Shown one piece after another: positions 1 to 28,190 of a stretch of 64,000 nt of DNA. The translations under genes were made by a program, and so were the position numbers. The DNA comes from Opitutales bacterium (lineage in GTDB: Bacteria > Verrucomicrobiota > Verrucomicrobiia > Opitutales > UBA2987): the NCBI GenBank assembly GCA_965226885.1, contig CBDDEL010000012.1, positions 192,001 to 256,000 on the forward strand. Direction: 5' to 3'. Each line of letters starts with the position of its first letter. Within the stretch, counting starts at the first letter, position 1. The notes below the pieces were generated by a model. It had not been told where the DNA came from and ran no database searches. It was given only the letters and a program-made list of their open reading frames with translations.

Positions 1-367
1 AAAATCGTTCACTTTTCAGCTTTGGGAGGGATGCCGATACGAATTGCGGGGCCAATCTCGCCGCGCCGTAATTGAAGTGCATTCCTGCTAAAATCCGGTT
101 CAGGATCGGATCGAGCCGCTCTTTTTGGGCCTCCGGGGGAAGGGTGGTCAATTCGTAATAAGGTCGGGGTCCGTTGAGGATGCGCGTAAGGTCGGCTTTC
201 ACCAGGATGCGGATATCACCGGCATTCTGGTCGATTTCCACCACAATAATAGTCTTATTGAGCAAATGACCGCTGGCGGCTGGTGTGAAGACGGTCAAAA
301 GCCCCAAACATAAGGCGGCGTAGAAAAGGGAAAAACCTCCGGCCTCATTGCGCGGACGGAATTTCAT
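1..367 (-). CDS. Exported protein, partial (runs off the window); possibly the N-terminal domain of a HupE/UreJ-type protein
   Basis: Not in the ORF track. Manual translation from ATG at 367 gives MKFRPRNEAGGFSLFYAALCLGLLTVFTPAASG-HLLNKTIIVVEIDQ..., open to position 1. Signal peptide followed by His; overlaps the end of the upstream NUP gene. Confidence 0.45.
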   Translation of the reverse strand, partial: MKFRPRNEAGGFSLFYAALCLGLLTVFTPAASGHLLNKTIIVVEIDQNAGDIRILVKADLTRILNGPRPYYELTTLPPEAQKERLDPILNRILAGMHFNYGAARLAPQFVSASLPKLKSERF

Positions 368-1409
368 CCCTGTACTTTTCCCAGTTTTCCACCAATTCGT
401 TGACGACACGGCTGCCAACCAGGTAAACATTCTCCAGGGCGGGCAAATAGGCGGAGTAACCCGCGCCATCCTTTTTCTCACCAGCCAGGCTTTGGGCCGC
501 CGTCAATCCTTCATGGGGCATGGAGTAGTTCGATGCTGAGCGCAGGACAAGGTATCGGCGCGGATCCACTTTTTTTGCCCCGGCCAGAAAATTGAGCGAT
601 TGATGCGTGGCGGTGTCCTCCATGGCGGCAGTAACGAAATTTCCTTTGCCCTCCGTCCAATAGGAGACCCAATCATTAGCCCATTGGGTGAGCAATTTGC
701 CGTGCCAGAAAGTGGATGCCGCCAAGTGGTCGCCCTTCAGGACAAAGGGCGGTCGCTGCGCAATGGGGTAATTCTTATATTTGGCACGATGTTTTTTCAA
801 TTCTTCGAGGTCTTCCAGCGGAACATCCTTGGTCAATTGATAGGCCCACTCGACCAGACCGGCGTTTAGGTGATAGACGGCTCCCTCGTTGTCCTCCTGC
901 CGGGGGAGTTCATAGGGTTTGGATTTACGCAATGGGATGTAGCCGGTCGGCCAGTCCGCCGGAGCTTCGCGAATGTCGATTTGATGGGCGATATCGCCAT
1001 CCACCAGCCATTCGGCCCAAGCCGCCGAAGCAAGAGACATATCCGCGGGATCGACTCCGGAAATTCCCGCCACAATCCAGTAAGCCCTGCTCAGGTCGAA
1101 CCGGTCATCCATTCCCAGGGCCATAACCGAGGCCGCAGCCCTGGCTGTACCGATCCCCGTCACCAATCCCAGAACACCTTTTTCGTTGTAGCGCAAATCC
1201 CGGTAGCCCTGCGGCATCGGGAAAACTTTGTCGAGAGGGAAGCGTTCCACCCAAGTTTGAGATTCGCCGGGTCGGTCGCCGCTATCTTCCCCCGCCTCGA
1301 ACATGGTGACGACAACCACTTTGATCGGAAGCGGTTCCGCTGCCGATGGCAATACAGCCATAAAAAGCGGTAAAATGGCCGTTGTTGATAAAATGCTTAT
1401 CATTTTCAT
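345..1409 (-). CDS. Purine nucleoside permease (NUP, PF06516-like) family protein 1, exported, PNP/UDP-like fold
   Basis: Signal peptide, then PIKVVVVTMFE, FDLSRAYWIVAGISGVDP, FWHG, AMED, LVLRSASNY. Confidence 0.85.
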   Translation of the reverse strand: MKMISILSTTAILPLFMAVLPSAAEPLPIKVVVVTMFEAGEDSGDRPGESQTWVERFPLDKVFPMPQGYRDLRYNEKGVLGLVTGIGTARAAASVMALGMDDRFDLSRAYWIVAGISGVDPADMSLASAAWAEWLVDGDIAHQIDIREAPADWPTGYIPLRKSKPYELPRQEDNEGAVYHLNAGLVEWAYQLTKDVPLEDLEELKKHRAKYKNYPIAQRPPFVLKGDHLAASTFWHGKLLTQWANDWVSYWTEGKGNFVTAAMEDTATHQSLNFLAGAKKVDPRRYLVLRSASNYSMPHEGLTAAQSLAGEKKDGAGYSAYLPALENVYLVGSRVVNELVENWEKYRDEIPSAQ

Positions 1410-1432
1410 GGGAGTAGCTTAAATGAGCTTAG

Positions 1433-2494
1433 TCATTTCGCGGAGCCCGGTGGAGTATCTTTGTATTTTTTCCAGTCCTTGACGAGGGCGTGGACGACCG
1501 GGCTGGCCACCCTATAACAGGATTCCAGCGCCGTCAAACCTTGCGCCGGGTAGGGGGCGGTCAGGCTCCAGTCGGGGGTTTTTCCAGGAGGCTGATGCGA
1601 GTAGTTGCTAGCCGTTCTGAGCACAAGCACCCTGTTTAAATCCACCTTACCGTTTTCGGCAAGGCGGTGTAGAGCGCGCAGGGTGCCGTTGTCCTCGACA
1701 TTGGTCATCATGAAATTTCCCTTCCCTTCGGTGTATAATTTCACCCAGTCGTTGGCCCATTGATTGAGGACTGTTCCATGCCAGTAGGCGTTGGAACCAA
1801 GGCTCTCTCCCATGACCACTTTTGGCGGGGCCGACGCATTGGGAAAGCCCTTGTAACGTTTCCGAAACTCCGCCACCTCGGTGTGGTCCGTCAACTCCAC
1901 ATACTTGGTTAAATGGTAGGCCCACTCGACCAGAGATTGATTGAGCCTGAACGACATGTTGGGGTAAGTCCAACCACCGGACCTGTCATTCGGTTTTTTC
2001 CCATCGGAGGGAAAAATGCCATAAGGCCAATCCTTTGGCGCTTCCCGCGAATCGATGGAGTGGGTCAAGTCCCCGTCCACCACCCAGCGAGACCAGGCGG
2101 CGCTGCCGATGGATACATCCTGGGGGTCCCCTCCGGCAATGCCGGAAACGATGAAGTAGGTTCTGCTCAGGTCGAACCGCTCGTCCAGACCGAGGGCGGT
2201 TATGACCATGGCGGCATTAGTCACTCCCGGCCCCGTGCAAATGCCCATGACTCCCCGGTCGTTCATGCGCAGATCGTGCGGACCCATGGGAAAGGGATAT
2301 ATCTTGTCCAGTTTTTCCCTCTCCACCCAAAACTGATACTCGCCCGGCTTATCGCCCGTATCATCGCCGATCTCATACATGGCGATGACGGCCACCTTTA
2401 CCGGGATGCGCTCCTTCTTTTCGGCTCCACCGAGGGGCGCCAACACGAACAGAAGGAGAACCAGAGTTATTATTTGTTTTATCCTGTGCATCAT
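1433..2494 (-). CDS. NUP-family protein 2, exported
   Basis: Signal peptide, PVKVAVIAMYE, FDLSRTYFIVSGIAGGDP, YWHG, NVED, VLRTASNY; paralogue of both neighbours. Confidence 0.85.
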   Translation of the reverse strand: MMHRIKQIITLVLLLFVLAPLGGAEKKERIPVKVAVIAMYEIGDDTGDKPGEYQFWVEREKLDKIYPFPMGPHDLRMNDRGVMGICTGPGVTNAAMVITALGLDERFDLSRTYFIVSGIAGGDPQDVSIGSAAWSRWVVDGDLTHSIDSREAPKDWPYGIFPSDGKKPNDRSGGWTYPNMSFRLNQSLVEWAYHLTKYVELTDHTEVAEFRKRYKGFPNASAPPKVVMGESLGSNAYWHGTVLNQWANDWVKLYTEGKGNFMMTNVEDNGTLRALHRLAENGKVDLNRVLVLRTASNYSHQPPGKTPDWSLTAPYPAQGLTALESCYRVASPVVHALVKDWKKYKDTPPGSAK

Positions 2495-2503: not shown

Positions 2504-3562
2504 TTAATTCTCTTCTGGGAGATGATTTTCGTAGCGGTCCCAGTTGTCCGCCAGTTCATGGAGCACTATGCTGCCGACTTTATAAGCCGCCTGTATGGCG
2601 GGCAGACCTTTTAAAACATAGGGTGCGCTGAAATGCCATTCGGCCCCCTTGCCTCGGGGCGGGGTGGAGTAATTGCTGGCCGTGCGCAGCACCATGATCC
2701 GGTCGAAATCGACTTTGCCCGATTTTGAGAGGCGTTTCAACGAGGTTAGACTGCCGTTGTCCTCCATCGCTGTCATGACGAAGTTTCCCTTTCCCTCGGT
2801 GTATAATTTCACCCAATCATTGGCCCAATTATTGAGCAGGTGCCCGTGCCAATAAGTGCTCGATCCCATGGCGTCGCCTTTCATGACGAAGGGTGGGCGC
2901 ATGGCGTTGGGGTAGTTTTTATATTGAATTCGAAACGCCTTCATTTCCGGGCCGTCTTCGATGGGATGATCCTTGGTCAATTGGAAAGCCCATTCCTGTA
3001 GGTGGGGATTTAGGTGGTAAACCACGACGGAATCGGAGGAGTGGGGCTTCCTTTCATTCGGCTTTGTGCCGCTCAATGGAAGTATCCCGTAGGGCCAATC
3101 CTCGGGAATTTCCCGCGAATCCATTTCATGGACGAGATCGCCGTCGAGGACGTATTCGGCCCAGGCCGCCGTTCCCAGGGAAGCATCTTCCGGATCGGCC
3201 CCGGCAATGCCCGCTATCAGCCAGTAGGATTTGGAGAAATCGAAACGCGGGTCCAGGCCCAGGGCCATAATGGTGGCCGTGGCATTGGTTACTCCGACAC
3301 CCGTTTCGAGAGCCAAAACGCCATTGTCGTTCATCCGCAAGTCACTTACTCCCAAGGGAAAGGGGATTACCTTGTCCAGTTTTTCCCCTTTAATCCACAA
3401 CTCCAGTTCCCCCGGGTTGCCATCATCCTGGGTTCCCCGCTCGAACATGGCCACTACCACGACCTTGACGGGTATCGGTTTGGCATCCGCCCATCCCGCA
3501 GGCAGAGCGAGAAAAGGAATCAACAAATTCAAGAACAATGGGTAAAACTTGGAATTATTCAT
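2504..3562 (-). CDS. NUP-family protein 3, exported
   Basis: Signal peptide, PVKVVVVAMFE, FDFSKSYWLIAGIAGADP, YWHG, AMED, VLRTASNY. Confidence 0.85.
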   Translation of the reverse strand: MNNSKFYPLFLNLLIPFLALPAGWADAKPIPVKVVVVAMFERGTQDDGNPGELELWIKGEKLDKVIPFPLGVSDLRMNDNGVLALETGVGVTNATATIMALGLDPRFDFSKSYWLIAGIAGADPEDASLGTAAWAEYVLDGDLVHEMDSREIPEDWPYGILPLSGTKPNERKPHSSDSVVVYHLNPHLQEWAFQLTKDHPIEDGPEMKAFRIQYKNYPNAMRPPFVMKGDAMGSSTYWHGHLLNNWANDWVKLYTEGKGNFVMTAMEDNGSLTSLKRLSKSGKVDFDRIMVLRTASNYSTPPRGKGAEWHFSAPYVLKGLPAIQAAYKVGSIVLHELADNWDRYENHLPEEN

Positions 3563-3713: not shown

Positions 3714-4651
3714 ATGAAAATCAGCTTTGAGTCCATAATCGCTTTGTTTTTCATGCCGCTGTGTCTTTTCGCGGAACCGCATTCTTCGATCCAACTGCCG
3801 GAAGGAGTGCCGGCCTCGCAGATCTGTGTTTTGGGGGGCACCAATGTTGCCAAGGCGCTCACCAGGACCGAATATATCCGCGGCTCTTTTACCATAGAGA
3901 CTCCGTTCGGAAAATCACCGAAAATTTATCATGGCGAGGTGAAGGGGGTTCCCTTTTATCATATTCCGCTGCATGGGGGCATCGAGTGGACCGGAAAAAC
4001 CGGGAGGAGATTCGCATAGCTCCCCTGCGTACCTGGTCGGCGATGCATCTTCTCGGGGTGACGGAAGTTTTGGGCGGCGCCACGGCAGGCGCCATCAATC
4101 CCGATTACAAACTGGGCGACTGGGTGGTGGCCGACGATTTTATCGATTTCAATGTGGAGCGGCCGCGTTCGATCGCCTACCAGGTATTGGGTGACGCCGC
4201 CGCCAACATTCTGCCAAGGGTCAACCCGGCCACCGACCCGCATATCGACGAGATTCTCTACCAGGCTTGTTTGAAAAATGCCAAAAGTGTCCAGGCCTGG
4301 AAGGGGGGTGTCATCGCGCAGGCGGCGGCGGGTCGATTTGAAACTGTGGCGGAAATAAAAATGATGCAAATGCTTGGATGCGATCTGGTTACGATGTCCG
4401 TTCCGACTGAGATATCCTATGCCCGGCAGTTGGGCATGAACTACGGCAGCATTATCGGCATCAGCAATCCCGCCGAGGGCCTCGGGGAATGGGGTTGGGA
4501 TACGCTGACGGATCTTTACCCGCGTTTTCACGAGCAATCCATCAAAATTTATCTCGAGGCAATTCCCAAAGTGGCTAAACTGGCGGGGGTTCCGCGGGCC
4601 GGGGACGCTCTCAGGATGCATCCCGATTTGGAACCGAAAAAGGATAAATAA
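3714..4651 (+). pseudogene. MTAP/purine nucleoside phosphorylase-family protein with signal peptide, frameshifted near 3995-3999
   Basis: ORF 3714-4019 has a signal peptide, ICVLGGT, IETPFG and PLHG. ORF 3761-4651 has GAINPDYKLGD, RFETVAEI, DLVTMSVPTE and ISNPAEG. One extra A in GGAAAAAC joins them (WTGKNREEIRIA). Confidence 0.8.
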
Positions 4652-4712: not shown

Positions 4713-6206
4713 ATGAAGATGAACTCAAAAAAACGATCCACTTGCAGCCCAATTAAATCCAAATTATTTCCTGGCCTGATTTTGGTTATATTATTTTTTA
4801 ACCAGACCTGGAGCGAGGAAGCCGGTTCCCTCCAGGATTTCAGTCAGATTTTTGAAACCATCAAACGGGAAGCCTCGCCGGAGGAGCTTTATACATTCCT
4901 CTACGATATGCCCAAGGGGGGCGACCTCCACCACCACCACGGCGGGTCCACCATTACCGAAGCCTGGTATAAGGTCGCCACCGATCCCGAATTGAATGAC
5001 GGCCAGCGCTATTATACCCGCAACCGGATAATGAATTGCGGGGAGGATGCCACTCCGCCGGGTTTGAGGAAAGGTTCAAAATCCCTCATGTATTGGGTTA
5101 ATATTAACGAAAGGTCCTGGCAAAAACTGAACGATTGCCCCCGCAGCGAGTATAAGCCCATCGATGAGTTGACTGACGGAGAACGCCGGGCCTGGATGTC
5201 GTCCCTCATTCTGGACCGTCCCGGCGAAAGCCAGAACGAATTCTTCGAATACCAGTTTCCCCGCATCAACGAGCTTTCCCGCAATCCCTATTTGATGAGC
5301 GAGTTGGTGGTGGACAACATGAAGCGTTTCGGGGCCGAGGGCCTGCTGTATTTCGAGCCGCAGGTAAGCGTCTTCAGTCGAAATGATAAAAATGGGAATC
5401 CCCTTTCTCCTCATCAAGTGTACAAAATTTACAAGGAACGCATCAACCGCCCCGATGCTTTGGCCACCGGGGTGACGGTGCGCTTCCAGTTAACCGTTTT
5501 GCGATTTGCTCCCGATGCTCTCGAGCGAGTGGGCCGGACATTCGAGTTTATCGATAGCCATAGAGATCTCTGGCGGGGCATCAACATGGCTGGCAGGGAG
5601 GACAATGAAAGAGGCCATCCCCAAAGGTTTACAGAAGCATACGACCAGGCCCTCCGCAAATATCCAGGAATCGGCATATCCATCCATGCGGGGGAGGAAA
5701 ACGAGCCCTCCGAACACATTATCGACACCCTGCGCCTGGGTGCCACCCGCATCGGACACGGGATCAACCTGATCGACGACCGCGACACTATGATGCTCAT
5801 GCGCACGGGCCGGTTCTTTGTTGAAATCAATCTCATAAGCAACGAGTTGCTAGGCTATGTGGATTCCATTGCCGAGCACCCGTTTCCCATATACCTTCGG
5901 CAGGGAATACCCGTCGGCCTCAGCACCGACGATCGCGGCATGTGGGATTCCAATATGACGGACGAATTTTATGTCGCCGTGACTCAATTCAACCTTTCCT
6001 GGGAAGAGATTATGAAAATTGGCAAATACAGCCTGAAGTTCTCTTTTGCTCAAACGGATGTGAAAAAGAAATTGCTGGAAGAATACCGCAAAAAGATGGA
6101 AACCTTTGCCCAAAAGTATTCCACCAGTGATTGGCGGCAGCCCCTGAAATCCGTCAAGGCCGTTACCTATGGATACGGTCAAAAACGTCTTGGCCTGAAA
6201 TTATAG
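4713..6206 (+). CDS. Exported adenosine deaminase, ADGF/ADA2-like
   Basis: Signal peptide; MPKGGDLHHH, HAGE, RIGHG and STDD metal/catalytic motifs. Confidence 0.85.
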   Translation: MKMNSKKRSTCSPIKSKLFPGLILVILFFNQTWSEEAGSLQDFSQIFETIKREASPEELYTFLYDMPKGGDLHHHHGGSTITEAWYKVATDPELNDGQRYYTRNRIMNCGEDATPPGLRKGSKSLMYWVNINERSWQKLNDCPRSEYKPIDELTDGERRAWMSSLILDRPGESQNEFFEYQFPRINELSRNPYLMSELVVDNMKRFGAEGLLYFEPQVSVFSRNDKNGNPLSPHQVYKIYKERINRPDALATGVTVRFQLTVLRFAPDALERVGRTFEFIDSHRDLWRGINMAGREDNERGHPQRFTEAYDQALRKYPGIGISIHAGEENEPSEHIIDTLRLGATRIGHGINLIDDRDTMMLMRTGRFFVEINLISNELLGYVDSIAEHPFPIYLRQGIPVGLSTDDRGMWDSNMTDEFYVAVTQFNLSWEEIMKIGKYSLKFSFAQTDVKKKLLEEYRKKMETFAQKYSTSDWRQPLKSVKAVTYGYGQKRLGLKL

Positions 6207-6470: not shown

Positions 6471-7349
6471 ATGGCTGAAAACAAACTGCTATTGGAAAGC
6501 GATCTCAAGAAATTGGGTGAGCGGGCGGTTTTGGAATTCGAGAAAAACGGTTACTGGATCAGCCCCCAATTATTTGGCGAGGAGGAGGTTGAGGAGCTTC
6601 GCCACGAATTGATGCGGACCTTTCGGGGAGAAAAAGACTTCGACAGTATGCACTATTTCCAAAAGCCCGATTTCGATCCCGAGAGCGGCGAGTTCGGTCT
6701 CCTGGTTAATAGCTGGTGGGTTAACAAGAAAATCCGGGAAACCATATACCATTCCCAAATCGGCTACATTGTTTCGAAATTGCTCGGCGTACCGGAAGTG
6801 CGTCTGGCCCTCGATCAGATAATTTATAAACCATCCGTCGATGAAGAGGATGACTCATCTTCAAAAACTCATGTCGGCTGGCACCAGGATGCGGCCCATT
6901 TTACGGTCTTCAACACCTCCAATTATGTTTCAGCCTGGATCGCCCTGCAGGACACCGATTTATCCAATGGAGCCATGAATTTTATCGAAGGTTCCCATAG
7001 ATGGGGCCTGAATGAAGATGCGGCCACATTCATGGAAACAGACCTCGATGTCCTTAAAACAAGGTTTTACCGGGAAGGTAGGGATTGGGTGGAAATTCCG
7101 GCCATACTCAAGGCGGGGCAGGTAAGCTTTCATTCCGGTTTGATTTACCATGGCTCAACATCCAACACATCGGGAGAGCCAAGGCTTTCTCTCGTTTTAC
7201 ACTTTATGCCTCAGGGGACTGCTTACAATAAATACGGCGGATATAATCCCATGGGTGTTCAGATGGGACCGTATGTAAAACATGGAGACCTTTGCGATGA
7301 CCCATTTTTCCCAAAAACCTGGCCGGCGGCCCCAAAATCTTATTATTAA
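6471..7349 (+). CDS. PhyH-family Fe(II)/2OG dioxygenase A
   Basis: FEKNGY, WHQD, VSAWIALQD, GSH, VSFHSGLIYHGS, PR; ATG at 6471 preferred over TTG at 6453. Confidence 0.85.
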   Translation: MAENKLLLESDLKKLGERAVLEFEKNGYWISPQLFGEEEVEELRHELMRTFRGEKDFDSMHYFQKPDFDPESGEFGLLVNSWWVNKKIRETIYHSQIGYIVSKLLGVPEVRLALDQIIYKPSVDEEDDSSSKTHVGWHQDAAHFTVFNTSNYVSAWIALQDTDLSNGAMNFIEGSHRWGLNEDAATFMETDLDVLKTRFYREGRDWVEIPAILKAGQVSFHSGLIYHGSTSNTSGEPRLSLVLHFMPQGTAYNKYGGYNPMGVQMGPYVKHGDLCDDPFFPKTWPAAPKSYY

Positions 7350-9853: not shown

Positions 9854-10282
9854 ATGCCCAACGTCGAATTAGAGGAAGGAAAAGAGCTGCAGCTTGATTT
9901 TAACAAGCTGAACGATATCGCGGCCACCGGCAAAGACCTCATCCCGGCAGTTGTCCAGGATACCGCAACCGGGGAGGTATTGATGCTCGGTTATGTTAAC
10001 AAGGAAGTTTTCGAAATCGCTTTAAAGGAAGGAAGTGTCACTTTCTGGAGCACTTGGCGGGATGAAGTCTGGACCGTGGGCAAAAATACCGGGGATACGC
10101 TTCGCATCATCGAAACACGGGTAAATTGCGAGCAAACCGCGGTCCTCTTTTTGGTTCGCCTCAGTGGGGGCGGCGCCTGCCATACCAGAATGGCGGACGG
10201 CTCAGCTCGTCACGGGTGCTTTTACCGCCGATTGAATTCCGATGGAGAACTGGAAATAATAACTGGGAGGGGAACCGGCTGA
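9854..10282 (+). CDS. hisI: Phosphoribosyl-AMP cyclohydrolase (HisI)-like protein, divergent
   Basis: AGGAG then ATG at 9854; LIPAVVQDTATGEVLMLGYVN, FWS, NCEQ, GACHT, CFYR. Confidence 0.75.
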   Translation: MPNVELEEGKELQLDFNKLNDIAATGKDLIPAVVQDTATGEVLMLGYVNKEVFEIALKEGSVTFWSTWRDEVWTVGKNTGDTLRIIETRVNCEQTAVLFLVRLSGGGACHTRMADGSARHGCFYRRLNSDGELEIITGRGTG

Positions 10283-14258: not shown

Positions 14259-14273
14259 AAAAACCAAATAAAG

Positions 14274-18059: not shown

Positions 18060-21000
18060 TTAGAAGATATACTTTATGCCAAAAAGAATATTCCAGCGGG
18101 ATTGGCCTAAACGGTCCTCAACTATTGCCGTGTTGCCCACCCCGTTGAATGAGTAGAGATACTTGTTTGATTCCTCAATATAAGTTGCGCTGGCGATATT
18201 CTGTGAAGGGGTGCCGCCAAAACCAATCGGGAAGTCCCTTATCTGGCCATAGGAACTGTTGATCAGATTGCCGATATTAAGGAAATCTATGGTGAACTGC
18301 AACTTGCCCCATTTTGTAGCAATAGGGATATCCTGTGCAATCTTGAGGTCCCATTGATGAATCCAGGGAAGAGTGGCATCGTTTTTCTGATGCCGTTTGC
18401 CTGGTTCGAGGTCAGGGTGTTGGGCGACGAAGGCAAAAAAAGCATCCCGGTCAGCAGCCTCGGCGGCGGTAAGGACACCGCTGGGGTCAGCCGCCCAGGT
18501 CACGAAGGGATCGTCCGGTCCATTCGGTGTGTAAAAGAGGTCATTGGTCGAGCAGCAGTCATCGTTATTCGTGTTATTTTTGGCTACGTAACTATAGGGC
18601 TTGCCTGAGCGACCTTGATAAAAGAGAGAAATATTCGTCTTCCACTTACTATTTTCACCACCCCATTTGATTTGTTTGGAGATGGCCCAGATAAAATTAT
18701 GGCGAACCTCAAAAGGCGAAGTTCCCAATTCATCCGTGTTGGCATTGAAGATCGGAGTAGCCCGAAAATTTTCCACTGCAATAAAGCCTGTCCCGGAATT
18801 AACTTCATTGGAACTACCGTAGGAATAAGCAAAGGTGGAAAACCAGCCATCCTCCCTCATCGGACGAGTGAGGGTAAGGGTGTAATTGGTGGAATCACCC
18901 AGGCTTGTGTTTCTTAATTCCGTTACACTCCCAAAACCGCCAAAGCCTTCGGCCCCGGCACGGGCTGTCGACATGATAATGCGACCGTCCGGACCTGTCC
19001 CGACCGGTTCGGCAACAAGGTTGCGGAATACCACGGCATCTTCGACAAATGACCATTCGCCTTCGATGGTGGCGACCATATCGCCCAGTAGCGGCGCCTT
19101 GAATTTGTAGTCAAGGGCCAGCACACCTTTCCAGGATGAAGGCGAATTGAATCCAGCGGCCAGGGAATCGACCTCCCCGCTGGGCGCGCCAGGCACTCCT
19201 TTGGGTTGGTTGGTGGAGTCCGGCTCAAACGCCGGGTTGCCATCCGGGAAACTTGCCGTCAAAACGGTGAGCCCGTCATTGGTAAACCCATTGGAAAGCC
19301 ACACCCCGGGCGACTTGCCGAAAAATTTGCCTATGCCGCCACGCAGTTGAACGGTGCTATCTCCTTTAATGTCCCAATTAAAACTGAATCGTGTGGAGAA
19401 AGTTCTTTCACCATCAATAGTATTATCATTGGGTCTGCCGAAGAAATCCTGAAACCGCTGATTAAACCCTGGTTTTAAAGGAAAATCATTGATATCCCAA
19501 CGAATACCAACGGTCATGGAAAAATTGTTGTGCACCCGCCAGGTATGCTGGAGATAAGGGGACCATATTTTTTCTTCCCAATTGGCGGTTACGTTGGTTC
19601 CCTCGGCTTCAAATCTGTGAAATAAACCGGAAGCTATTCCCGCCCTGAAATCATCGATACTGGCAAAATTCCATACTCCTTTATTGGCGAAAAGAAACGT
19701 ATTGGCTATGATCTTCTTTGAAAAATCCAAACCGAAAACCGTTTCGTGATTTCGGTTGGCCCCCGAAAAGAGAGTGCCCGCCGCCGTAAAGGTGGTCGTT
19801 TCAGCAAAGAGAAAATTGAAATGACGAAATAATTCCGCTCCCATAAACACGTTGTTACCACTGGCAACAGCAACTGCAACTTGAGGATCGTTCGTAGGTG
19901 TTACCGGGCTGCCATCGTAATCGGAAAAAGAATAACGAATTTCTGTGCTGAAGCGGTCATTCCAGTCGCTGAAAAGCTGAGCCACATAATTCGTACTGAT
20001 GCTGGGTTGATCGTACCAATAGCTGCTCAGGGAAAAAGCTGCCGTATTGCGTTGCGTAATGATCACGACATTGTCTTCGGCCTTGTCATACTTAAAGCTC
20101 AGATGGTGTTTGTCGTTGATATTCCAATCGACTTTGACCATTATTTTCTCGACCGAGTCATCCAATATATCTGCCCCGGTGGGCGTTCCTGGACTAAGGC
20201 CCCAAACGTTTGTCGCAATATCGATAATCTCGTCGATTTCCGCTTGTGTGCCGGGGAAAATATTGGTCGCGCCGCTACCGATCAAACCTACACTGGTGCC
20301 ACTTCGTTCCCGCTCCAGTTTTTCATAATTGAAAAAGAAAAACAGCTTATTCTTCAGGATGGGTCCACCCAAGGTAGATCCATAGGTTTTCTCGGTGAAC
20401 ACAGGGTCGAATGCCTGACCATTTTCGTTTTCTCCAAATTGATCCGAATCGCGCCAGTAGTAGTAGGCGGAACCGTGAAACTGGTTGGTGCCGCTTTTGG
20501 TCACAACATTGACGGCTGCGCCCGTAAATTTGGACTGCCGAATGTCAAAGGGCGCCGTGTCGATTTGCAACGACTCAATGGCATCAATTGAAACAGGGGG
20601 GCCGTTGCGTGTGGCCTGGCCATTTGAATTGAGGCCAAAGGGATCATTTACCCGAACCCCATCAACCATCACATTATTATAGCGTGCATTGATGCCGCCC
20701 GCGGTAAAGGAACCGAAATCCTTGTCCACGCTCACCTTGGGATTCATCTTGAGCAACTCATTCAAGGAACGGTCAGCGCTGGATACTCCCAGAACGCGGG
20801 CCTCGTCCAAACTCGTCACCGAGCTGCGGGAATCCCTATTAAAGAGACCTTCCTGTTCCTCTGTAAAAATGAATTCTTCCAACTCGGTGATATCGGCCGC
20901 ATCCGCCATCGATATGACGATATTGGAGACACTTGCCACGGTCAGATAAATGTTCTCCTCGGTTGAGGTTTGATAACCGTCAAAACTGGCGGTAACGCTG

Positions 21001-21242
21001 TAGGGGCCTCCCACGCGCATCCCCCGTACGGCGAAAGAACCATTTCCGGTGGAGGTCATCGTTTTGGTCGTTCCGGTGGGGACATGCACGATGCGCACGT
21101 TGGCGCCCGCGACAGGGTTGCCGTCACTATCGGTCACGGTGCCGTTCATGCCGGAGGAGGTGATGTTTTGGGCATAACCGGCCGAAGAGAGAATAAGGCT
21201 CGTGAAAAGCAATATTGCTATTCTTAATCTGTTAATATTCAT
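18060..21242 (-). CDS. TonB-dependent outer-membrane receptor (Oar-like, N-terminal carboxypeptidase-regulatory-like domain)
   Basis: Signal peptide, GTVTDSDG, VNVVTKSGTNQFHGS, LGGPILKNKLFFF, C-terminal Phe; 1060 aa. Confidence 0.9.
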   Translation of the reverse strand: MNINRLRIAILLFTSLILSSAGYAQNITSSGMNGTVTDSDGNPVAGANVRIVHVPTGTTKTMTSTGNGSFAVRGMRVGGPYSVTASFDGYQTSTEENIYLTVASVSNIVISMADAADITELEEFIFTEEQEGLFNRDSRSSVTSLDEARVLGVSSADRSLNELLKMNPKVSVDKDFGSFTAGGINARYNNVMVDGVRVNDPFGLNSNGQATRNGPPVSIDAIESLQIDTAPFDIRQSKFTGAAVNVVTKSGTNQFHGSAYYYWRDSDQFGENENGQAFDPVFTEKTYGSTLGGPILKNKLFFFFNYEKLERERSGTSVGLIGSGATNIFPGTQAEIDEIIDIATNVWGLSPGTPTGADILDDSVEKIMVKVDWNINDKHHLSFKYDKAEDNVVIITQRNTAAFSLSSYWYDQPSISTNYVAQLFSDWNDRFSTEIRYSFSDYDGSPVTPTNDPQVAVAVASGNNVFMGAELFRHFNFLFAETTTFTAAGTLFSGANRNHETVFGLDFSKKIIANTFLFANKGVWNFASIDDFRAGIASGLFHRFEAEGTNVTANWEEKIWSPYLQHTWRVHNNFSMTVGIRWDINDFPLKPGFNQRFQDFFGRPNDNTIDGERTFSTRFSFNWDIKGDSTVQLRGGIGKFFGKSPGVWLSNGFTNDGLTVLTASFPDGNPAFEPDSTNQPKGVPGAPSGEVDSLAAGFNSPSSWKGVLALDYKFKAPLLGDMVATIEGEWSFVEDAVVFRNLVAEPVGTGPDGRIIMSTARAGAEGFGGFGSVTELRNTSLGDSTNYTLTLTRPMREDGWFSTFAYSYGSSNEVNSGTGFIAVENFRATPIFNANTDELGTSPFEVRHNFIWAISKQIKWGGENSKWKTNISLFYQGRSGKPYSYVAKNNTNNDDCCSTNDLFYTPNGPDDPFVTWAADPSGVLTAAEAADRDAFFAFVAQHPDLEPGKRHQKNDATLPWIHQWDLKIAQDIPIATKWGKLQFTIDFLNIGNLINSSYGQIRDFPIGFGGTPSQNIASATYIEESNKYLYSFNGVGNTAIVEDRLGQSRWNILFGIKYIF

Positions 21243-22485: not shown

Positions 22486-23406
22486 TCAAGTGGTAATGCT
22501 TGATAATTCAACCGCCAGGAGAGTGCCCAACTTAACATTGTTGCGCACCAGTTCAATATTGCTGCGCAGGCTTTCCCCATCAGTTAGGGCTTCGATACGA
22601 GAAAGGAGAAAAGGTGTGGCGGCTTTTCCTTTGATGCCCTTTTGCTCCAATTCCGCGAGGGCCTGGGAAATTGCCGATTCCGCTTTTCTCTTCGGTATTT
22701 CGTGCTCCTTTGGGATCGGGTTGGCAATCACCATGCCGCCCTTTATTCTCATTGCCCATTTGGTGTTCAGGATATTGGCCAATTCCTCAATCGAATCGAC
22801 CCTTTGTGGGACTTCAAAACCGCTGTCTCTGGTAAAAAATGCGGGAAACCTATCGGTTTGATAACCCGCTACGGGAACGCCCAGCGTTTCCAGGTATTCC
22901 AGGGTCAGGCCGATATCGAGGATCGATTTTGCCCCGGCGCAAACTACCGCAACATCGTTTCGAGCCAATTCCGGCAAGTCGGCAGAGATGTCGAAGGTCT
23001 TATCCGCTCCCCGGTGAACCCCACCGATTCCCCCCGTGGCCATGACTTTTATGCCTGCCAGGGCGGCAATTCGGACGCTGGCCGCAACCGTGGCGGCGCC
23101 ATTTAATTTTTCGGCCACCAAAAAAGGCAGGTCGCGGCTGCTCGCTTTCAGGATTCCCTCTCCTTTTCCCAGAAACTCAATTTCCTCCTTACTCAAACCC
23201 ACCTTCAACTTTCCTTTCAGAATGGCCAGAGTGGCGGGGGTAGCGCCATTTTTTCGGACAATTGATTCTACTTCGCGAGCGGTGCGGACATTTTCCGGAT
23301 AAGGCATCCCGTGCGCGATAATTGTGGATTCCAACGCCAGGACCGGTTGTCCCCGGTCGAGCGCCGCAGCCACTTCGGGCAGCAAATCCAGGTATTCGTT
23401 CAGCAT
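22486..23406 (-). CDS. psuG: Pseudouridine-5'-phosphate glycosidase
   Basis: ALESTIIAHGMPYPEN, ATGGIGGVHRG, DISADL, GAKSILD, TPFLL. Confidence 0.95.
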   Translation of the reverse strand: MLNEYLDLLPEVAAALDRGQPVLALESTIIAHGMPYPENVRTAREVESIVRKNGATPATLAILKGKLKVGLSKEEIEFLGKGEGILKASSRDLPFLVAEKLNGAATVAASVRIAALAGIKVMATGGIGGVHRGADKTFDISADLPELARNDVAVVCAGAKSILDIGLTLEYLETLGVPVAGYQTDRFPAFFTRDSGFEVPQRVDSIEELANILNTKWAMRIKGGMVIANPIPKEHEIPKRKAESAISQALAELEQKGIKGKAATPFLLSRIEALTDGESLRSNIELVRNNVKLGTLLAVELSSITT

Positions 23407-23424: not shown

Positions 23425-23949
23425 CTATAATAAAGTCCCACGGATGGGATAATCGTTCGCCGGACCGCGGATATATTCCAGTCCCTGCGAGAGCGCATCC
23501 AGGTCCGGGCGTAAAAAAGGATTATTGGAAACATCGGTCAAACGCAAATTACCATCCTCGTCGATGACAAACATTGCCGGTTCCGGGTTGGGACGATCAT
23601 TTTCTTGAGCGGAGCGAGGAGGGGAAATATACAAGCCCATTTCCCGCATGTCATCCAACGTTAGACCATAGGCGACGGGTAACGTTAATTTACTTACCCG
23701 GACCAGTTGTTCGGCTTTCTCCTCGGGGTCGCCGGAAACTGCTATGATCTCCACTCGCAGATTTTTTAACGACTTACGGAGCGCTTCCAGTCGGGCCAGG
23801 TAGTGGAGGCACAGAGGGCAATGCAAACCCCGGTAAACCACAACCAGTTGCCAGTTATTATCACCTCGCGGCTTGCCGAGCTCAATGGTTCTTCCGCCCA
23901 CCAGAGGCAAAGTGATTTTGGGGAAAGAATCGGCGGCTTTTAATTTCAT
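23425..23949 (-). CDS. Peroxiredoxin-like redoxin (AhpC/TSA family)
   Basis: YRGLHCPLC, EPAMF, PFLRPDL. Confidence 0.8.
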   Translation of the reverse strand: MKLKAADSFPKITLPLVGGRTIELGKPRGDNNWQLVVVYRGLHCPLCLHYLARLEALRKSLKNLRVEIIAVSGDPEEKAEQLVRVSKLTLPVAYGLTLDDMREMGLYISPPRSAQENDRPNPEPAMFVIDEDGNLRLTDVSNNPFLRPDLDALSQGLEYIRGPANDYPIRGTLL

Positions 23950-23951: not shown

Positions 23952-24788
23952 CTAAATAGAAGGGTACCAGCGATTTTTGTTTTTGGCCAGGCGTTCCTCA
24001 TTCCACCGGTGGAGGATGTGAGCGGCTTCATTTCCGGCCTGCACACATTTTTCAATTCCACCGTAAACAAAGTCGTCCGTAGCCCGGTTGGCGATGACCA
24101 CGGAAATCGCGCCCGCTTTTAACCCGAAAAGGCCGGCCAGGGTCAACAAGGTGGCGGCTTCCTGCTCGTAATTGAGAACCTTGGCCGCAATCAGATCTTC
24201 ATGGCGTGTCTTTTGCCAACTTTGGCGGAAGCCGCTAAAGGCGGGTCGGTTTTGCCCGCAAAAAAAAGAAGCCGTTGTCGCAGTGATGCCCGCGTGATAG
24301 CTAAACCCAAGTTTCTCACAAGCTTCAATCAAGGCCAGCACGACCTCATAATGAGCCACCGCCGGATACCCCAGGGAAACATAATTCTCACTCGTTCCAT
24401 CGAACCGAACCGAACCGGTGGAGATGATCAAATCCCCTAATTCGATGTCCGGCTGGAGCGCAGCGGTGGTTCCGACGCGAATGAAGGTGCGGCCTCCAAT
24501 AGCGGCCAGTTCCTCCAAGGCATTCGATGTCGAGGGGCCTCCGGCTCCGGTGGAACAGGCTGAAATGTCCATTTCCCTAAATTTTCCGGTGTGAACGACA
24601 TGTTCCCGGTAGGAGGAAATTTCCCTAAACTCATCCCAATAGCTGGAAATTTTGGCCACTCGATCCGGGTCGCCCGGCAATAGAATGGTATCCGCGACAT
24701 CTCCCTCGCCGCACCGTATGTGATACTGCAGCCTGCCTTTGCCCTCCGGCCGTTCCGCTTGTGAAACCCATTCTTTATCTTCCGCCAT
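23952..24788 (-). CDS. Second uridine/nucleoside phosphorylase
   Basis: QYHI, LLPGDPDRV, STGAGGPS, RVGTT, FFCGQNR, NYEQEAA. Confidence 0.85.
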   Translation of the reverse strand: MAEDKEWVSQAERPEGKGRLQYHIRCGEGDVADTILLPGDPDRVAKISSYWDEFREISSYREHVVHTGKFREMDISACSTGAGGPSTSNALEELAAIGGRTFIRVGTTAALQPDIELGDLIISTGSVRFDGTSENYVSLGYPAVAHYEVVLALIEACEKLGFSYHAGITATTASFFCGQNRPAFSGFRQSWQKTRHEDLIAAKVLNYEQEAATLLTLAGLFGLKAGAISVVIANRATDDFVYGGIEKCVQAGNEAAHILHRWNEERLAKNKNRWYPSI

Positions 24789-24925: not shown

Positions 24926-25918
24926 ATGGGTTTAGCAGAGGGAGTGGCAGATCTGTCGGATGAGCAGATCGACTCGTTTCACCGGGAAGGATATTTGATC
25001 GTTGAGGATGTTTTTCGGGATAACGATTTAAACGCCCTCCGCCGGGAACTCGCTGAAGGCATCGACGAGAAGATCAAAGCGCTGCAGTCGGATGGCGTTT
25101 TAAAAAACACCTATGAAACCGAAGCGCTGGAGACCCGCCTGGTTAAGATTTTTCGGGACAATGAGGAAATCGGGCGGCAGATCATGTGCCACCTGGAGGG
25201 ACTTGGAGGTAGCGGCTACCATGGCCGTGAGATGTTCAACCTCATCAAGCATCCCAAAATGCTCAAACTGGCGGAATCCATTCTCGGCCCCGAACTGGTT
25301 TCCTCGGCTATTTACCGGCTGCGGACCAAGATTCCGGGCGACAAACTGAAAGAGGTGCCCTGGCACCAGGATTCCGGCTATTTCTCTTCCCACTGCGATT
25401 CCCACCTCATTCTGACCTGCTGGATACCATTGGTCGATGTTTCCAGGGAAAATGGCTGCCTGGAAGTCATTCCGCGATCTCACCGCTCAGGCATCGTCAA
25501 GCACCATCAATGCGCCGACCGCAAGGGTTACCTCCTCATAAAAGATGAGGATCTGCCAAAAAGCGAGAAACCCACCGTGGCAATCGAAATAAAGGCCGGT
25601 AGTGTGCTCCTGCTGACTAACCTGACCGCCCATTGCTCGCTCTCCAATCGGACGGATGAAATTCGGTGGAGCGTCGATCTACGCTACCAAAGCTCGGAGA
25701 CTCCCAATAACGTGGATCTCTGGCCGGAGGAAAATCCCACCGACTATGAGAAAAATCTGCAAATCGCCTGCTCTCCGCCGGAAGCTGATTTTGTTGTCCA
25801 AAGCGTTCGCAAACCCCAAGGGGTGGTTGATTTTCAAGGTTTCCTCAAGCGCCGGGAAGCTTTTTACAATCATGGTTTTCCCAAGGAAAAACGTTGGGAG
25901 CCGGATGCCGTCCATTGA
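24926..25918 (+). CDS. PhyH-family dioxygenase C (paralogue of B)
   Basis: FHREGY, YRLRTKIPGDK, VPWHQDSGY, RWSVDLRY, PPEADF; start placed by alignment to paralogue B. Confidence 0.85.
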   Translation: MGLAEGVADLSDEQIDSFHREGYLIVEDVFRDNDLNALRRELAEGIDEKIKALQSDGVLKNTYETEALETRLVKIFRDNEEIGRQIMCHLEGLGGSGYHGREMFNLIKHPKMLKLAESILGPELVSSAIYRLRTKIPGDKLKEVPWHQDSGYFSSHCDSHLILTCWIPLVDVSRENGCLEVIPRSHRSGIVKHHQCADRKGYLLIKDEDLPKSEKPTVAIEIKAGSVLLLTNLTAHCSLSNRTDEIRWSVDLRYQSSETPNNVDLWPEENPTDYEKNLQIACSPPEADFVVQSVRKPQGVVDFQGFLKRREAFYNHGFPKEKRWEPDAVH

Positions 25919-27220
25919 TCAGCCGATAAAAATACCGGCAAAAGTGGCGGTGGAGAGGGTGGCGCAGGTTCCCCCGATCAAAGCTCGCAAGGCGAAACGG
26001 GCCAGGTTTAAGCGCTGGCTGGGGGCCAGCACGGATATTCCACCTATCTGCACGGCCACTGAGGCAAAATTGGAAAAGCTGCAAAGGGCATAGGTAGCGA
26101 TTACGATAGATCGCTGATCGGTCAACGCGCCCTTTTCTATCAGTTCCGCCATCGAGATGTAGGAAACGGTCTGGGTCAGAACCATACCCTCGCCCAGCAA
26201 TTGACCGACCGCGAGCAGGCTGCCAGTGTCGACTCCCACGATAAAGGCGATTGGCGCGAAGAGGATGCCGAGGATAAACTGCAGGGTTAGCGCTTCATAA
26301 GCTCCCCCTGTTACATTGTAAATGATTGGATTGAGCCCCGTAACCGAACCAATCCAATGATTCGTGATGTGGTTCAGCATCGCGACCAAGGAGATGAAAA
26401 CGAGCACCATCGCCCCCACGTTTACAGCCAGGCGCACTCCTTGGGCGGTCCCGGTTGTGATTGAATCGAACAGGTTCAGCCCAACCGAACCCGACGGGAT
26501 TTGCAGGTCTCTGGAGACTGCTTCGCTCTCAGGAAGTAATAACTTGGCAAAAACAATGGCAGCCGGGGCCGACATGACGGAGGCGGCGATGAGATGCTTG
26601 CCAAACATGACTTGTTTTTCCAGGTCGTCCCCGCCCAGAATGAAAATATAGGCAACCAGCACACTGCCGGCGATGGTGGCCATGCCACCGGTCATGAGGC
26701 AGGCGAGCTCCGATCGGGTCATGCGTTCGAGGTATGGTTTAACAATCAGTGGCGCTTCGGTCTGGCCGATAAAAATGTTGGCCGCGGCAGCCAAACTTTC
26801 CGCACCAGACAGCCGCATGGTCTTGCTCATCAACCAGGCAAAAACAAAGACGATCTTTTGTAGTATGCCCAAATAATATAAAACAGAGGTGAGGGCGGAA
26901 AAGAAAACCACGGTCGGCAATATGCGAAAGCCCCAGACCGCCCCGATCTCGCGGCTTGTAACCAGATCTCCAAAAAGAAAACGACTTCCAACCGTTGAGA
27001 ATTCAAGGATGCTGACAAAAAAACGGGAACCGGCCTCGACCATGTATTCGACCAGGGAAACTTTCAGGATCAGGATGGCCAACGCCAGTTGCAGCAAAAG
27101 TCCACCCGCAATGAGACGCCAGTTGATCCCCTTTCGGTTTTCGCTTAAAGAGTAACAAATCAGCATAAGCGCCGAAAGGCCCAATATAGCCCGACCGACG
27201 CCACTCAAAAACTCCACCAT
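25919..27220 (-). CDS. CNT/NupC nucleoside transporter, divergent substrate site
   Basis: FIGQTEAP, GMATIAG; VLTQTVSY replaces LNEFxAY; LCSFSNFAS. Confidence 0.9.
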   Translation of the reverse strand: MVEFLSGVGRAILGLSALMLICYSLSENRKGINWRLIAGGLLLQLALAILILKVSLVEYMVEAGSRFFVSILEFSTVGSRFLFGDLVTSREIGAVWGFRILPTVVFFSALTSVLYYLGILQKIVFVFAWLMSKTMRLSGAESLAAAANIFIGQTEAPLIVKPYLERMTRSELACLMTGGMATIAGSVLVAYIFILGGDDLEKQVMFGKHLIAASVMSAPAAIVFAKLLLPESEAVSRDLQIPSGSVGLNLFDSITTGTAQGVRLAVNVGAMVLVFISLVAMLNHITNHWIGSVTGLNPIIYNVTGGAYEALTLQFILGILFAPIAFIVGVDTGSLLAVGQLLGEGMVLTQTVSYISMAELIEKGALTDQRSIVIATYALCSFSNFASVAVQIGGISVLAPSQRLNLARFALRALIGGTCATLSTATFAGIFIG

Positions 27221-27308
27221 TCCTGCTAGTAAAGGGAGAGACAGTCAGATGTCGAAAGAAAACCCAGCATGCGTTTTCTCGTTATACAGAAAAACAAGAG
27301 GTGTGACA

Positions 27309-28190
27309 TCAATCCCGGTAATATTCCGTTTCATCGACCAACTCGCCGTTTTGATTGAAGGCGTTGCCGAAAACATGGCCGGTGTAAAACTCCGATTTCG
27401 GATCTTGTTTGGGCAGACGGATATGACCCTGTTCGCTACGCACAACCTCTCGCCGGCGGCCGCACATTAACAAACCCGTGTCTTTCCACACCGTGTCGCT
27501 AATTTGATAAGCGTCATCGGCGCGGTATTCGAAAACAATGCCCCGGCGCGGTTTACCCGACAGATTGGCCGGTGAACCGTGCAATGTAAGGCCGTGATGT
27601 ATGCTGATCCCGCCGGTTTTAGGGATGATCTGCGCAACCTTGGATTCATCCTCCCAATAATGGCTTTCCTGGCACTCGGCCGTAAAAAGACCATCCACAG
27701 AATGGTTCAGGTATCCCAATTTATGGCTTCCCTTGACCATTTGCATACAGCCGTTTTCGGGGGTGGCATCGTCCAGCATAATCATTACGGCCAGCACTGA
27801 GGAGTTGGTGTGGGGAAAAAAGGCCAGGTCCTGATGCCATGCAAAGGTTCCCTTTCCCTTGGTCGGCGGCTTGGTTGCCAGTTTGGAATGCTGTAGCTGA
27901 ATGTCCGGGCCGATTAAGGGGACAAGCCGGTTCAAAATCCTTGGATCCCGCGCCAAATCCATAAAAATAGAATCCAATGTGGTGATTTCCAATAGGTGGA
28001 CCGCCTTGGTGGCATGCCCTCTCTGCTTCAGCTGTTCCTTAAGCGCATCGGATTCCGTGGCCCGGCGCAGCTCATCCACTTTCTCCATAGGGAAAACATC
28101 ATCGACAACCAAAAATCCATTTTCCTGGAATTCTTCGATTTGCCCTGTGGTTAAACCATCCTGGTCTTTGCGAATTGCTCTTTCAATCAT
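27309..28190 (-). CDS. PhyH-family dioxygenase D
   Basis: FQENGF, WHQD, LDDATPENGC, GSH, TLHGS, PRR. Confidence 0.85.
   Translation of the reverse strand: MIERAIRKDQDGLTTGQIEEFQENGFLVVDDVFPMEKVDELRRATESDALKEQLKQRGHATKAVHLLEITTLDSIFMDLARDPRILNRLVPLIGPDIQLQHSKLATKPPTKGKGTFAWHQDLAFFPHTNSSVLAVMIMLDDATPENGCMQMVKGSHKLGYLNHSVDGLFTAECQESHYWEDESKVAQIIPKTGGISIHHGLTLHGSPANLSGKPRRGIVFEYRADDAYQISDTVWKDTGLLMCGRRREVVRSEQGHIRLPKQDPKSEFYTGHVFGNAFNQNGELVDETEYYRD

Follow-up and report, generated by a model that had tools for sequence, protein, structure and literature searches.

A nucleoside-scavenging island in an Opitutales bacterium with candidate enzymes for modified nucleosides and a HisI paralogue with altered phosphate-binding motifs

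The stretch from position 192,001 to 256,000 of contig CBDDEL010000012.1, from the assembly GCA_965226885.1 of an uncultured marine Opitutales bacterium, was analyzed as one window of 64,000 nucleotides. A preliminary description of this window had proposed that positions 345 to 28190 form a "nucleoside utilization locus" that works like a polysaccharide utilization locus (PUL) and is aimed at modified nucleosides from RNA breakdown. Our analysis indicates that a nucleotide/nucleoside scavenging island at this site is well supported, and that a de-modification role of the island is plausible but unproven. The pseudouridine genes psuG and psuK indicate that the targets include at least one modified nucleoside. 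The account that we favor, with moderate confidence, is that three modules have been joined into a scavenging island in which iron(II)/2-oxoglutarate (Fe/2OG) oxygenases and a HisI paralogue, termed HisI* here, remove modifications from nucleosides. The gene families, the compartments predicted for their products, the order of the genes and its conservation in the genus are shown here; all substrates beyond pseudouridine are inferred.

HisI* is the new result of this work and the strongest assay candidate of the island. The genome carrying the window (G000; 5.48 Mb, 96% complete) possesses two phosphoribosyl-AMP cyclohydrolase (PRA-CH) genes that are 55% identical, and a second copy was found in 3 of 151 genomes of the order, all of this genus. 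HisI* shares 54-55% identity with its own housekeeping copy versus 54-58% with ten aligned copies of other families, and a search of a word-indexed collection of 5.8 billion proteins returned five homologues at 81-90% identity and none further above 55%. It matches PF01502 (E 8.7e-18), and its score for the NCBIfam equivalog PRK00051 is below the cut-off (89.2 bits against 126; 227-aa open reading frame [ORF]). The alignment of three locus copies and ten housekeeping copies, extended by three locus-type and two housekeeping database proteins, revealed the sequence FWSTWRDEVW[TIV]VGKNTGD in all six locus-type copies and FWS[TS]SR[NKH]ELW[IV]KG[KMA]TSGD in all ten aligned housekeeping copies and their two database homologues. 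The Cys residues of NCEQ, ACH and GCF align with those of 1zps, and they and the His of ACH are kept in HisI* and throughout the alignment; we take the three cysteines to be the zinc ligands of PRA-CH and the ACH histidine to be the catalytic base. In the part of the MtHISN2 study drawn on here (PMC8102479), the phosphate-binding motifs are SRS (100-102) and WTKGETS (107-113), Lys109 also contacts adenine N7, the substitutions K109A, T112V and S113A reduce AMP binding, and the catalytic His serves as the general base. Both phosphate-binding motifs are altered in HisI*, from STS to STW and from W-x-K-G-x-T-S to W-x-V-G-K-N-T. The gene is under selection, since the motif change is conserved in all six copies. 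We infer that HisI* is a neofunctionalised cyclohydrolase whose substrate would be short of at least one phosphate, and the motif changes suggest an unphosphorylated N1-substituted adenosine. An N1-substituted adenosine such as 1-methyladenosine (m1A) is the chemically closest candidate, because phosphoribosyl-AMP is itself an N1-alkylated AMP attacked at C6. HisI* has the PRA-CH domain, the cysteines and the ACH His in common with HisI (1zps; MtHISN2, 7bgm), whereas its gene lies beside cdd, with the HisI* stop codon abutting the cdd start codon, rather than with his genes, and was found in one genus only. Loss of a DxDxD motif was also considered as a mark of HisI* and rejected, as the housekeeping copies of the order likewise read N-C-E-Q-N. 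This sequence was observed in the housekeeping HisI of ten aligned Opitutales (L011:5809-6219 and loci L121-L129), at the position of the D-C-D-G-D metal site of the M. thermoautotrophicum enzyme.

The gene content given in the preliminary description was confirmed by Pfam (30 ORFs) and NCBIfam (27 ORFs): a TonB-dependent receptor (TBDR), a 5'-nucleotidase (5'NT), three concentrative nucleoside transporters (CNTs), three NUP proteins, an adenosine deaminase (ADA)-like protein, a cytidine deaminase (Cdd), two uridine phosphorylases (Udp), PsuG and PsuK, four PhyH-family and one isopenicillin N synthase (IPNS)-type Fe/2OG oxygenase, the HisI paralogue and an exported hydrolase (Table 1). An AhpC/redoxin gene at 23425-23949 is an addition to this list, and an IS1380 element at 8236-9829 had been omitted from the hydrolase/HisI stretch. 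While the genes at 345 to 28190 are real, the island extends past the left edge of the window, where an adenine deaminase, a GNAT protein and another PNP_UDP_1 gene lie beyond the HupE-like gene (locus L013), and its existence as a single 28-kb unit is specific to this strain. The clustering of nucleoside genes is far beyond chance: the 28-kb island makes up 0.5% of the 5.48-Mb genome and holds three of its six CNT genes, three of its five NUP genes, both udp genes, and the sole copies of psuG and psuK. PhyH genes number 16 in G000, 4 of them inside the island; matches to this family were observed in 0 of 14 control genomes. Signal-peptide-like N-termini were recognized by eye in the three NUP proteins, the purine nucleoside phosphorylase (PNP)-like and ADA-like enzymes, the hydrolase, the 5'-nucleotidase and the receptor, and were not seen by eye in the oxygenases, the HisI-like protein, Cdd, Udp or PsuG. 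The proposed layout of uptake, periplasmic trimming, CNT import and phosphorolysis fits these families, their predicted compartments and the minus-strand operon order TBDR-5'NT-udp-CNT-CNT (18060-21242 down to 12963-14267).

The proposed aim at modified nucleosides is supported for pseudouridine, whereas other substrates are suggested by the accompanying families. PsuG covers positions 1-291 of the 291 positions of PF04227 (E 1.6e-129), and the psuK-like kinase, with its ORF taken from the first canonical start, has pseudouridine kinase as its top NCBIfam model at 96 bits against a cut-off of 540; the two genes adjoin each other in three genomes. In the proposed mechanism, nucleotides or nucleosides would enter through the outer-membrane TBDR, and the periplasmic 5'-nucleotidase, perhaps together with a PhoD-like phosphatase (29271-30575), would strip phosphate. 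The ADA2-like deaminase and the NUP proteins might handle purine nucleosides in the periplasm, the three CNTs would carry nucleosides into the cytoplasm, and Cdd, the two Udp enzymes and PsuK/PsuG would degrade them there. The cytoplasmic Fe/2OG oxygenases and HisI* may take off modifications that block these breakdown steps; the group removed by the oxygenases would most likely be the ribose 2'-O-methyl, as with the enzymes FJS and PHYHD1 discussed below, and HisI* might open or deaminate an unphosphorylated N1-substituted adenosine such as m1A. A more specific version would assign a dedicated RNA-turnover nucleoside pathway in which HisI* hydrolyses N1-alkyl adenosine (m1A) at C6 to a 5-aminoimidazole-4-carboxamide (AICA)-riboside-type product, the PhyH proteins are ribose O-demethylases with differing base preferences, the 3oox-like IPNS-type oxygenase is a base C-/N-demethylase, Cdd takes N4-substituted cytidines and the NUP proteins are periplasmic nucleosidases; in all these details together, we consider it unlikely. 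Homotetrameric cytidine deaminases, the type found here, also accept N4-substituted cytidines according to the portion of PMC9897663 used here.

The chemistry that the favored account assigns to the PhyH proteins has a precedent in print. As described in the part of PMC12709175 (Nucleic Acids Research, December 2025) on which we rely, the bacterial PF05721 enzyme FJS and human PHYHD1 demethylate free 2'-O-methyl nucleosides with 2-oxoglutarate, homologues from bacteria, plants, a fungus and a virus are likewise active, none of these enzymes acts on nucleotides, and human PHYH, of the same family, is inactive on 2'-O-methyl nucleosides. Part of the idea put forward in the preliminary description is already published, since that study demonstrates PhyH-family demethylases of 2'-O-methyl nucleosides. 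FJS and PHYHD1 are cytoplasmic Fe/2OG enzymes of the same Pfam family as PhyH1-4, and activity on nucleosides rather than nucleotides fits a step after the 5'-nucleotidase and CNT import. FJS came from functional screening as a 1.2-kb insert, which the same portion of PMC12709175 describes without gene context, whereas PhyH1-4 are set among nucleoside genes and are likened to it by family membership only. All four island proteins score above the PF05721 cut-off, and the HQD motif and distal His were seen in PhyH2 alignments.

Comparison with related genomes indicated that the island was put together in this strain from three modules, which are found on different contigs in its sister genomes. 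Module A is kept in G137:C129 and G051:C17 and comprises hydrolase-HisI*-cdd-oxygenase(-PhyH2), the convergent CNT-CNT-udp-5'NT-TBDR and psuK-psuG; the 3oox-like oxygenase, HisI* and the hydrolase hold constant positions across three genus genomes, and PhyH2 is at the same place in G137 and was not found at that position in G051. In module B, the order udp2-PhyH3-CNT3 is kept in all three genomes possessing PhyH3. Module C (NUP and ADA-like genes) lies on other contigs in G051, G137 and G097, and in these three sister genomes the PNP-like gene is absent between NUP and the ADA-like gene. PhyH1 and PhyH4 orthologues are on other contigs in sister genomes. In G051 and G137, the hydrolase is bordered by an AraC-GNAT regulator and an AdoHcyase-like gene. 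The genus shows an expansion of CNT transporters that points to specialisation on nucleosides: CNT matches number six each in G000, G051 and G137, two in G078 and G097, and one in the other matching genomes of the order. Within the genus, oxygenase genes are found beside nucleoside genes in no fewer than six distinct pairings. Those of the island are PhyH2-CNT1, udp2-PhyH3-CNT3 and CNT3-PhyH4. On other contigs, a PhyH1-like gene accompanies NUP (G137:C68) and a Nuc_deoxyrib_tr-family gene (G051:C31), a PhyH4-like gene of 64% identity accompanies NUP (G097:C24), and PhyH occurs with CNT (G137:C189).

Several observations weigh against the favored account. The preliminary description had named the conserved linkage of PhyH, IPNS and HisI homologues to nucleoside genes as its own test, and this linkage largely breaks down beyond one genus. 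None of 33 CNT loci from other Opitutales genera contained PhyH, nor did any of 33 NUP loci from other Opitutales families. PhyH2/3 matches at E<=1e-30 occur in 13 of 151 genomes of the order, G000 counted; four orthologues from other genera (42-48% identity) showed no nucleoside-gene neighbor by tblastn, and those at the G100 and G076 loci lie among other PhyH genes and genes for apiosidase-like, GxGYxYP, GH32, PfkB, Amidohydro_2 and creatininase proteins. The island gene set was found in 0 of 26 Bacteroidota loci that carry an orthologue of the IPNS-type oxygenase. PhyH1, PhyH4 and the PNP-like gene adjoin the island in this strain only, and the true PhyH4 orthologues of G137 and G051 (81-83%) are situated between glycerate kinase and RNase E/G. 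The Pfam search gave no regulator in 1-28190, and the AraC-GNAT gene had no tblastn match in the 96%-complete G000. At the residue level, the ribose- and base-contact positions K102, H105, Q139 and F161/Y of PHYHD1, the first three of which contact ribose, align with Y, G, S and Y in PhyH2, the first three only weakly; these contact residues are conserved among non-bacterial enzymes only, as far as the portion of PMC12709175 used here goes. The genus genomes are also kin and amount to roughly one observation, so that the recurrence within the genus is suggestive and not independent replication. Some of the adjacency may be an accident of rearrangement, because G000 carries 256 near-full-length copies of one insertion sequence (IS) family.

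The 29 IPNS-like loci comprised 2 in sister metagenome-assembled genomes, 1 in a Rhodospirillaceae member (35%) and 26 in Bacteroidota (50-60% identity; 50-56% for the 25 of 26 whose match spans most of the protein). At six of these Bacteroidota loci, tblastn gave a weak udp/PNP-like match 0.5-1 kb downstream; in the two of the six with Pfam annotation, it is a PNP_UDP_1 gene after SUI1. For PhyH4, 13 of 33 metagenome loci were at least 44% identical, and tblastn detected no CNT, udp or other island genes at these 13. Six of these 13 loci were annotated by Pfam, and one of the six (L095, outside the genus) carries PfkB, AraC, PhyH4-like, DUF455, inosine-uridine nucleoside hydrolase and PhyH.

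A rival account is a mosaic formed by rearrangement. The nucleoside modules would be real, but methylated sugars, osmolytes or the like would be the substrates of the oxygenases, HisI* and the hydrolase, whose genes would be here only through the shuffling of an IS-rich genome. We regard this alternative as possible but doubtful. It would account for the 12 of 16 PhyH copies of G000 that lie outside the island, the siting of PhyH1 and PhyH4 elsewhere in sister genomes, the carbohydrate-related surroundings of PhyH2/3 orthologues in two other genera (apiosidase-like, GxGYxYP, GH32, PfkB and Amidohydro_2) and the abundance of IS copies; PhyH2 and PhyH3 also match the NCBIfam model "sporadic carbohydrate cluster 2OG-Fe(II) oxygenase" (E 3e-12 and 2e-13), under its cut-off. 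However, the 3oox-like oxygenase, HisI* and the hydrolase are fixed in three genomes, PhyH3 in the three possessing it and PhyH2 in two, the HisI* stop abuts the cdd start, and the HisI* motif change is present in every copy. In separate loci, moreover, the neighbors of different PhyH paralogues include NUP, CNT, a deoxyribosyltransferase-like gene and a nucleoside hydrolase.

A bacterial counterpart of fungal-type thymidine salvage appears improbable. Here the IPNS-type enzyme would oxidise thymine or a 5-methylpyrimidine, PhyH proteins would hydroxylate deoxyribonucleosides at C2', and DNA pyrimidines would pass to uridine phosphorylase. Fungal thymine-7-hydroxylase (thymine dioxygenase, 5c3p) ranks third in the PDB search of the IPNS-type protein (E 2e-37) and is its best characterised nucleobase-acting match, and two udp genes and cdd are nearby. 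The metal and 2-oxoglutarate ligands H214, D216, H271, R286 and S288 (HxD..H, Arg286 and Ser288) are all identical, and of the base contacts the stacking Phe292 and Arg190 are kept (residue roles from the part of PMC4787775 consulted). Nevertheless, the other base contacts differ (Y217->I, N87->M, E122->Q and N294->Q), the nearest relative of solved structure, 3oox (E 2e-65), is uncharacterised, and the Bacteroidota orthologues are not in pyrimidine clusters. No Amidohydro_2 gene of the iso-orotate decarboxylase type was found in the island by Pfam, and a PhyH-family 2'-hydroxylase, a possibility only, was not found in this analysis. An orthologue of thymine hydroxylase was rejected on two grounds, the change at four of six base-contact positions and the missing decarboxylase partner; the island oxygenase is a relative within the same IPNS-type fold family and not a member of the fungal salvage enzyme group. 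A nucleoside natural-product cluster, with the oxygenases and HisI* as tailoring enzymes of a nucleoside scaffold, was rejected on gene content and is scarcely credible: Fe/2OG oxygenases and PfkB kinases do occur in nucleoside antibiotic clusters and the IPNS-type oxygenase matches AdaV weakly in the PDB (E ~4e-8), but uptake and catabolic genes dominate (receptor, 5'-nucleotidase, three importers, phosphorylases and deaminases), and Pfam gave no synthetase, glycosyltransferase, methyltransferase or exporter among the 30 ORFs.

The three NUP proteins of the preliminary description are present by Pfam, but they are probably enzymes and not transporters, since they are exported and have a predicted fold like that of MTA/SAH nucleosidases. 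The NUP1 sequence had no PDB match at E<=1. A model from a 31-sequence alignment reached a mean predicted local distance difference test (pLDDT) score of 85 and a predicted TM-score (pTM) of 0.86, and its best Foldseek match had E 1.7e-10 with TM-scores of 0.76 by target length and 0.52 by model length. The Foldseek matches shown for NUP1 were all MTA/SAH nucleosidases, one of them periplasmic, or futalosine hydrolase (probability 1.00; TM-scores 0.61-0.78 by target length and 0.43-0.54 by model length). Invariant positions of the family alignment are E38, M263-E264-D265 and R290/S293/N294, which presumably resemble nucleosidase motifs. The NUP proteins are thus probably exported nucleoside-cleaving or nucleoside-binding proteins and not permeases, and the island suggests that the "purine nucleoside permeases" of PF06516 are mis-named exported enzymes. 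In 7 of 33 loci from three other Opitutales families, NUP and ADA-like genes are no more than about 5 kb apart, and other neighbors of NUP in these 33 loci include TonB receptors, PNP_UDP_1, adenine deaminase and a nucleobase permease. At L166, L173 and L175, NUP adjoins a Vut_1 (YhhQ-type) transporter and a CDA-like deaminase, and at L179 a tRNA-guanine transglycosylase (TGT); some NUP proteins may be linked to queuosine/queuine salvage.

Bacterial disposal of, or feeding on, modified nucleosides from RNA turnover is largely unknown, and it was only in December 2025 that a demethylase for 2'-O-methyl nucleosides was first described, encoded on a metagenomic insert that lacked gene context. 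The island places the PhyH family in a physiological setting in which substrates are taken up across the outer membrane, dephosphorylated, imported by CNTs and split by phosphorolysis. The oxygenases and HisI* of this setting are good candidates for recycling chemically modified RNA building blocks; the uncharacterised 3oox-type oxygenase and the exported hydrolase are further candidates that can be assayed. Clusters for nucleoside salvage and the PsuK/PsuG pair were already known, and PhyH-type demethylases of 2'-O-methyl nucleosides have been known since December 2025. The literature searched (subscription journals not covered) contained neither the phrase "nucleoside utilization locus" nor a description of a TonB-receptor/5'-nucleotidase/CNT/oxygenase locus, of an m1A cyclohydrolase or of a HisI paralogue of the HisI* kind. 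In PULs and in the Bacteroides ribose/nucleoside (rus) locus, TonB-dependent uptake is followed by periplasmic trimming, inner-membrane import and cytoplasmic breakdown. The island has this logic in common, with a receptor of the CarboxypepD_reg and OMP_b-brl_4 type. It is not PUL-like in the strict sense: SusD-family proteins were absent among the 30 ORFs by Pfam, the receptor had no NCBIfam match at E<=1e-5 and hence no SusC model match, and PULs have a dedicated sensor or regulator, whereas Pfam revealed none in 1-28190. Pseudouridine catabolism by PsuK and PsuG is known from E. coli; in the island, the same pair is accompanied by a TonB receptor, by importers and by oxygenases. The enterobacterial genes nupC, udp, cdd and deo, scattered in E. 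coli under common regulators, provide the same core steps of CNT-type import, cytidine deamination and uridine phosphorolysis, whereas the island genes are clustered with a TonB receptor, periplasmic enzymes and extra enzyme families.

Table 1. Genes and elements of the island and its immediate flanks, with positions in the window.
Feature	Position	Strand	Evidence and remarks
HupE/UreJ-like membrane protein, 445 aa, 5' part; continues past left window edge	2..481	-	
NUP1, PF06516, exported	345..1409	-	Pfam E 1.5e-112; signal peptide by eye; predicted fold resembles MTA/SAH nucleosidases
NUP2, PF06516 paralogue, exported, 48% identical to NUP1	1433..2494	-	Pfam; signal peptide by eye
NUP3, PF06516 paralogue, exported	2504..3562	-	Pfam; signal peptide by eye
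PNP/MTAP-like phosphorylase, exported, frameshift near 3990-4005	3714..4651	+	Pfam, NCBIfam
A_deaminase, adenosine-deaminase-like, ADGF/ADA2-like long form, exported	4713..6206	+	TIGR01431 E 8.7e-26, under cut-off
PhyH1, Fe/2OG oxygenase	6471..7349	+	Pfam
Alpha/beta hydrolase, exported; heads hydrolase-HisI*-cdd-oxygenase operon	7373..8239	+	Pfam, NCBIfam
IS1380-family element, 1594 bp, TTAG 4-bp target duplication	8236..9829	+	Pfam, NCBIfam, empty-site contig
HisI*, PRA-CH paralogue, altered phosphate-binding motifs	9854..10282	+	Pfam, NCBIfam, alignment
Cytidine deaminase (cdd), homotetrameric type	10283..10726	+	Pfam, NCBIfam
IPNS-type Fe/2OG oxygenase, DIOX_N + 2OG-FeII_Oxy	10875..11828	+	Pfam
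PhyH2, Fe/2OG oxygenase	11907..12917	+	Pfam
CNT1, concentrative nucleoside transporter	12963..14267	-	Pfam, NCBIfam
CNT2, concentrative nucleoside transporter	14274..15575	-	Pfam, NCBIfam
udp1, uridine phosphorylase 1; likely start ATT at 16345	15590..16345	-	NCBIfam
UshA-like 5'-nucleotidase, exported	16341..18008	-	Pfam, NCBIfam, signal peptide by eye
TonB-dependent outer-membrane receptor: CarboxypepD_reg, Plug, barrel domains	18060..21242	-	Pfam
psuK-like PfkB kinase; best NCBIfam name pseudouridine kinase	21466..~22416	-	Pfam, NCBIfam
PsuG/Indigoidine_A, pseudouridine-5'-phosphate glycosidase family	22486..23406	-	Pfam E 1.6e-129
AhpC/redoxin-like protein; adjoins psuG in G137 too	23425..23949	-	Pfam
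udp2, uridine phosphorylase 2	23952..24788	-	Pfam, NCBIfam
PhyH3, Fe/2OG oxygenase, between udp2 and CNT3	24926..25918	+	Pfam
CNT3, concentrative nucleoside transporter	25919..27220	-	Pfam, NCBIfam
PhyH4, Fe/2OG oxygenase	27309..28190	-	Pfam
Rid-family protein (possible island extension)	28660..29040	-	Pfam, NCBIfam
PhoD-like phosphatase, exported (possible island extension)	29271..30575	-	Pfam, NCBIfam

The exported MTAP-like enzyme of the preliminary description belongs to the PNP/MTAP family and has an exported N-terminus, but its gene is not intact. Positions 3714-4019 encode the signal peptide and N-terminus, and the remainder is in another frame from ~3990. The frameshift is reproduced, because contigs of runs X1 and X3, from two studies, show 0 differences from the window over this stretch; run X1 may be the source sample of the assembly, and contigs of run X4 leave 3336-4669 uncovered. 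The IS1380 element splits the hydrolase-HisI operon, and the hydrolase and HisI-like genes are adjacent in G137 and G051. In run X4, one contig passes directly from 8235 to 9830, with 4 bases in common; the empty site therefore exists in another strain, and the insertion is polymorphic. The ends of the element were set from this contig and by direct reading, as the inverted-repeat search gave internal pairs only. A perfect 23-bp tandem duplication (9111-9156) disrupts its transposase; in run X6, the element is present at the site without this duplication. The 256 near-full-length copies in G000 noted above are copies of this IS1380-family element.

Two genes have unusual starts. For udp1, the likely start is the ATT at 16345, which shares the sequence CATTAA with the overlapping stop of the 5'-nucleotidase and has AAGGAG upstream; the same ATT is present in G137, and Ile stands at that position in G051. 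This looks like a conserved, non-canonical start that may be coupled to the upstream gene. The first ~90 codons of psuK (22180-22450, minus strand) are conserved in three genomes, none of which has an ATG, GTG or TTG ahead of this conserved N-terminus, and the codon preceding ACIGG is ATC, GTC or GTA across the three. Reading psuK and udp1 as pseudogenes was rejected on the conservation of the N-terminal codons in three genomes and on the position of the udp1 ATT behind AAGGAG.

Minor variation was also observed among strains. A 10-bp tandem duplication at 18001-18020, in the gap between the 5'-nucleotidase and the receptor, is missing in one low-depth contig of run X4, and this run also shows a 15-nt insertion in the ADA-like gene (5382) and a 1-nt insertion in CNT1 (13426), each in one low-depth contig. 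PhyH4-type genes adjoin Rid (L-PSP) genes in the window (27309-29040) and on two unrelated metagenome contigs (L088 and L089). Two families of short non-coding repeats of ~100-130 bp, at 29040-29175 and 31870-32005, have 47 and 18 blastn matches, respectively, in G000, and many matches are also found in the three sister genomes.

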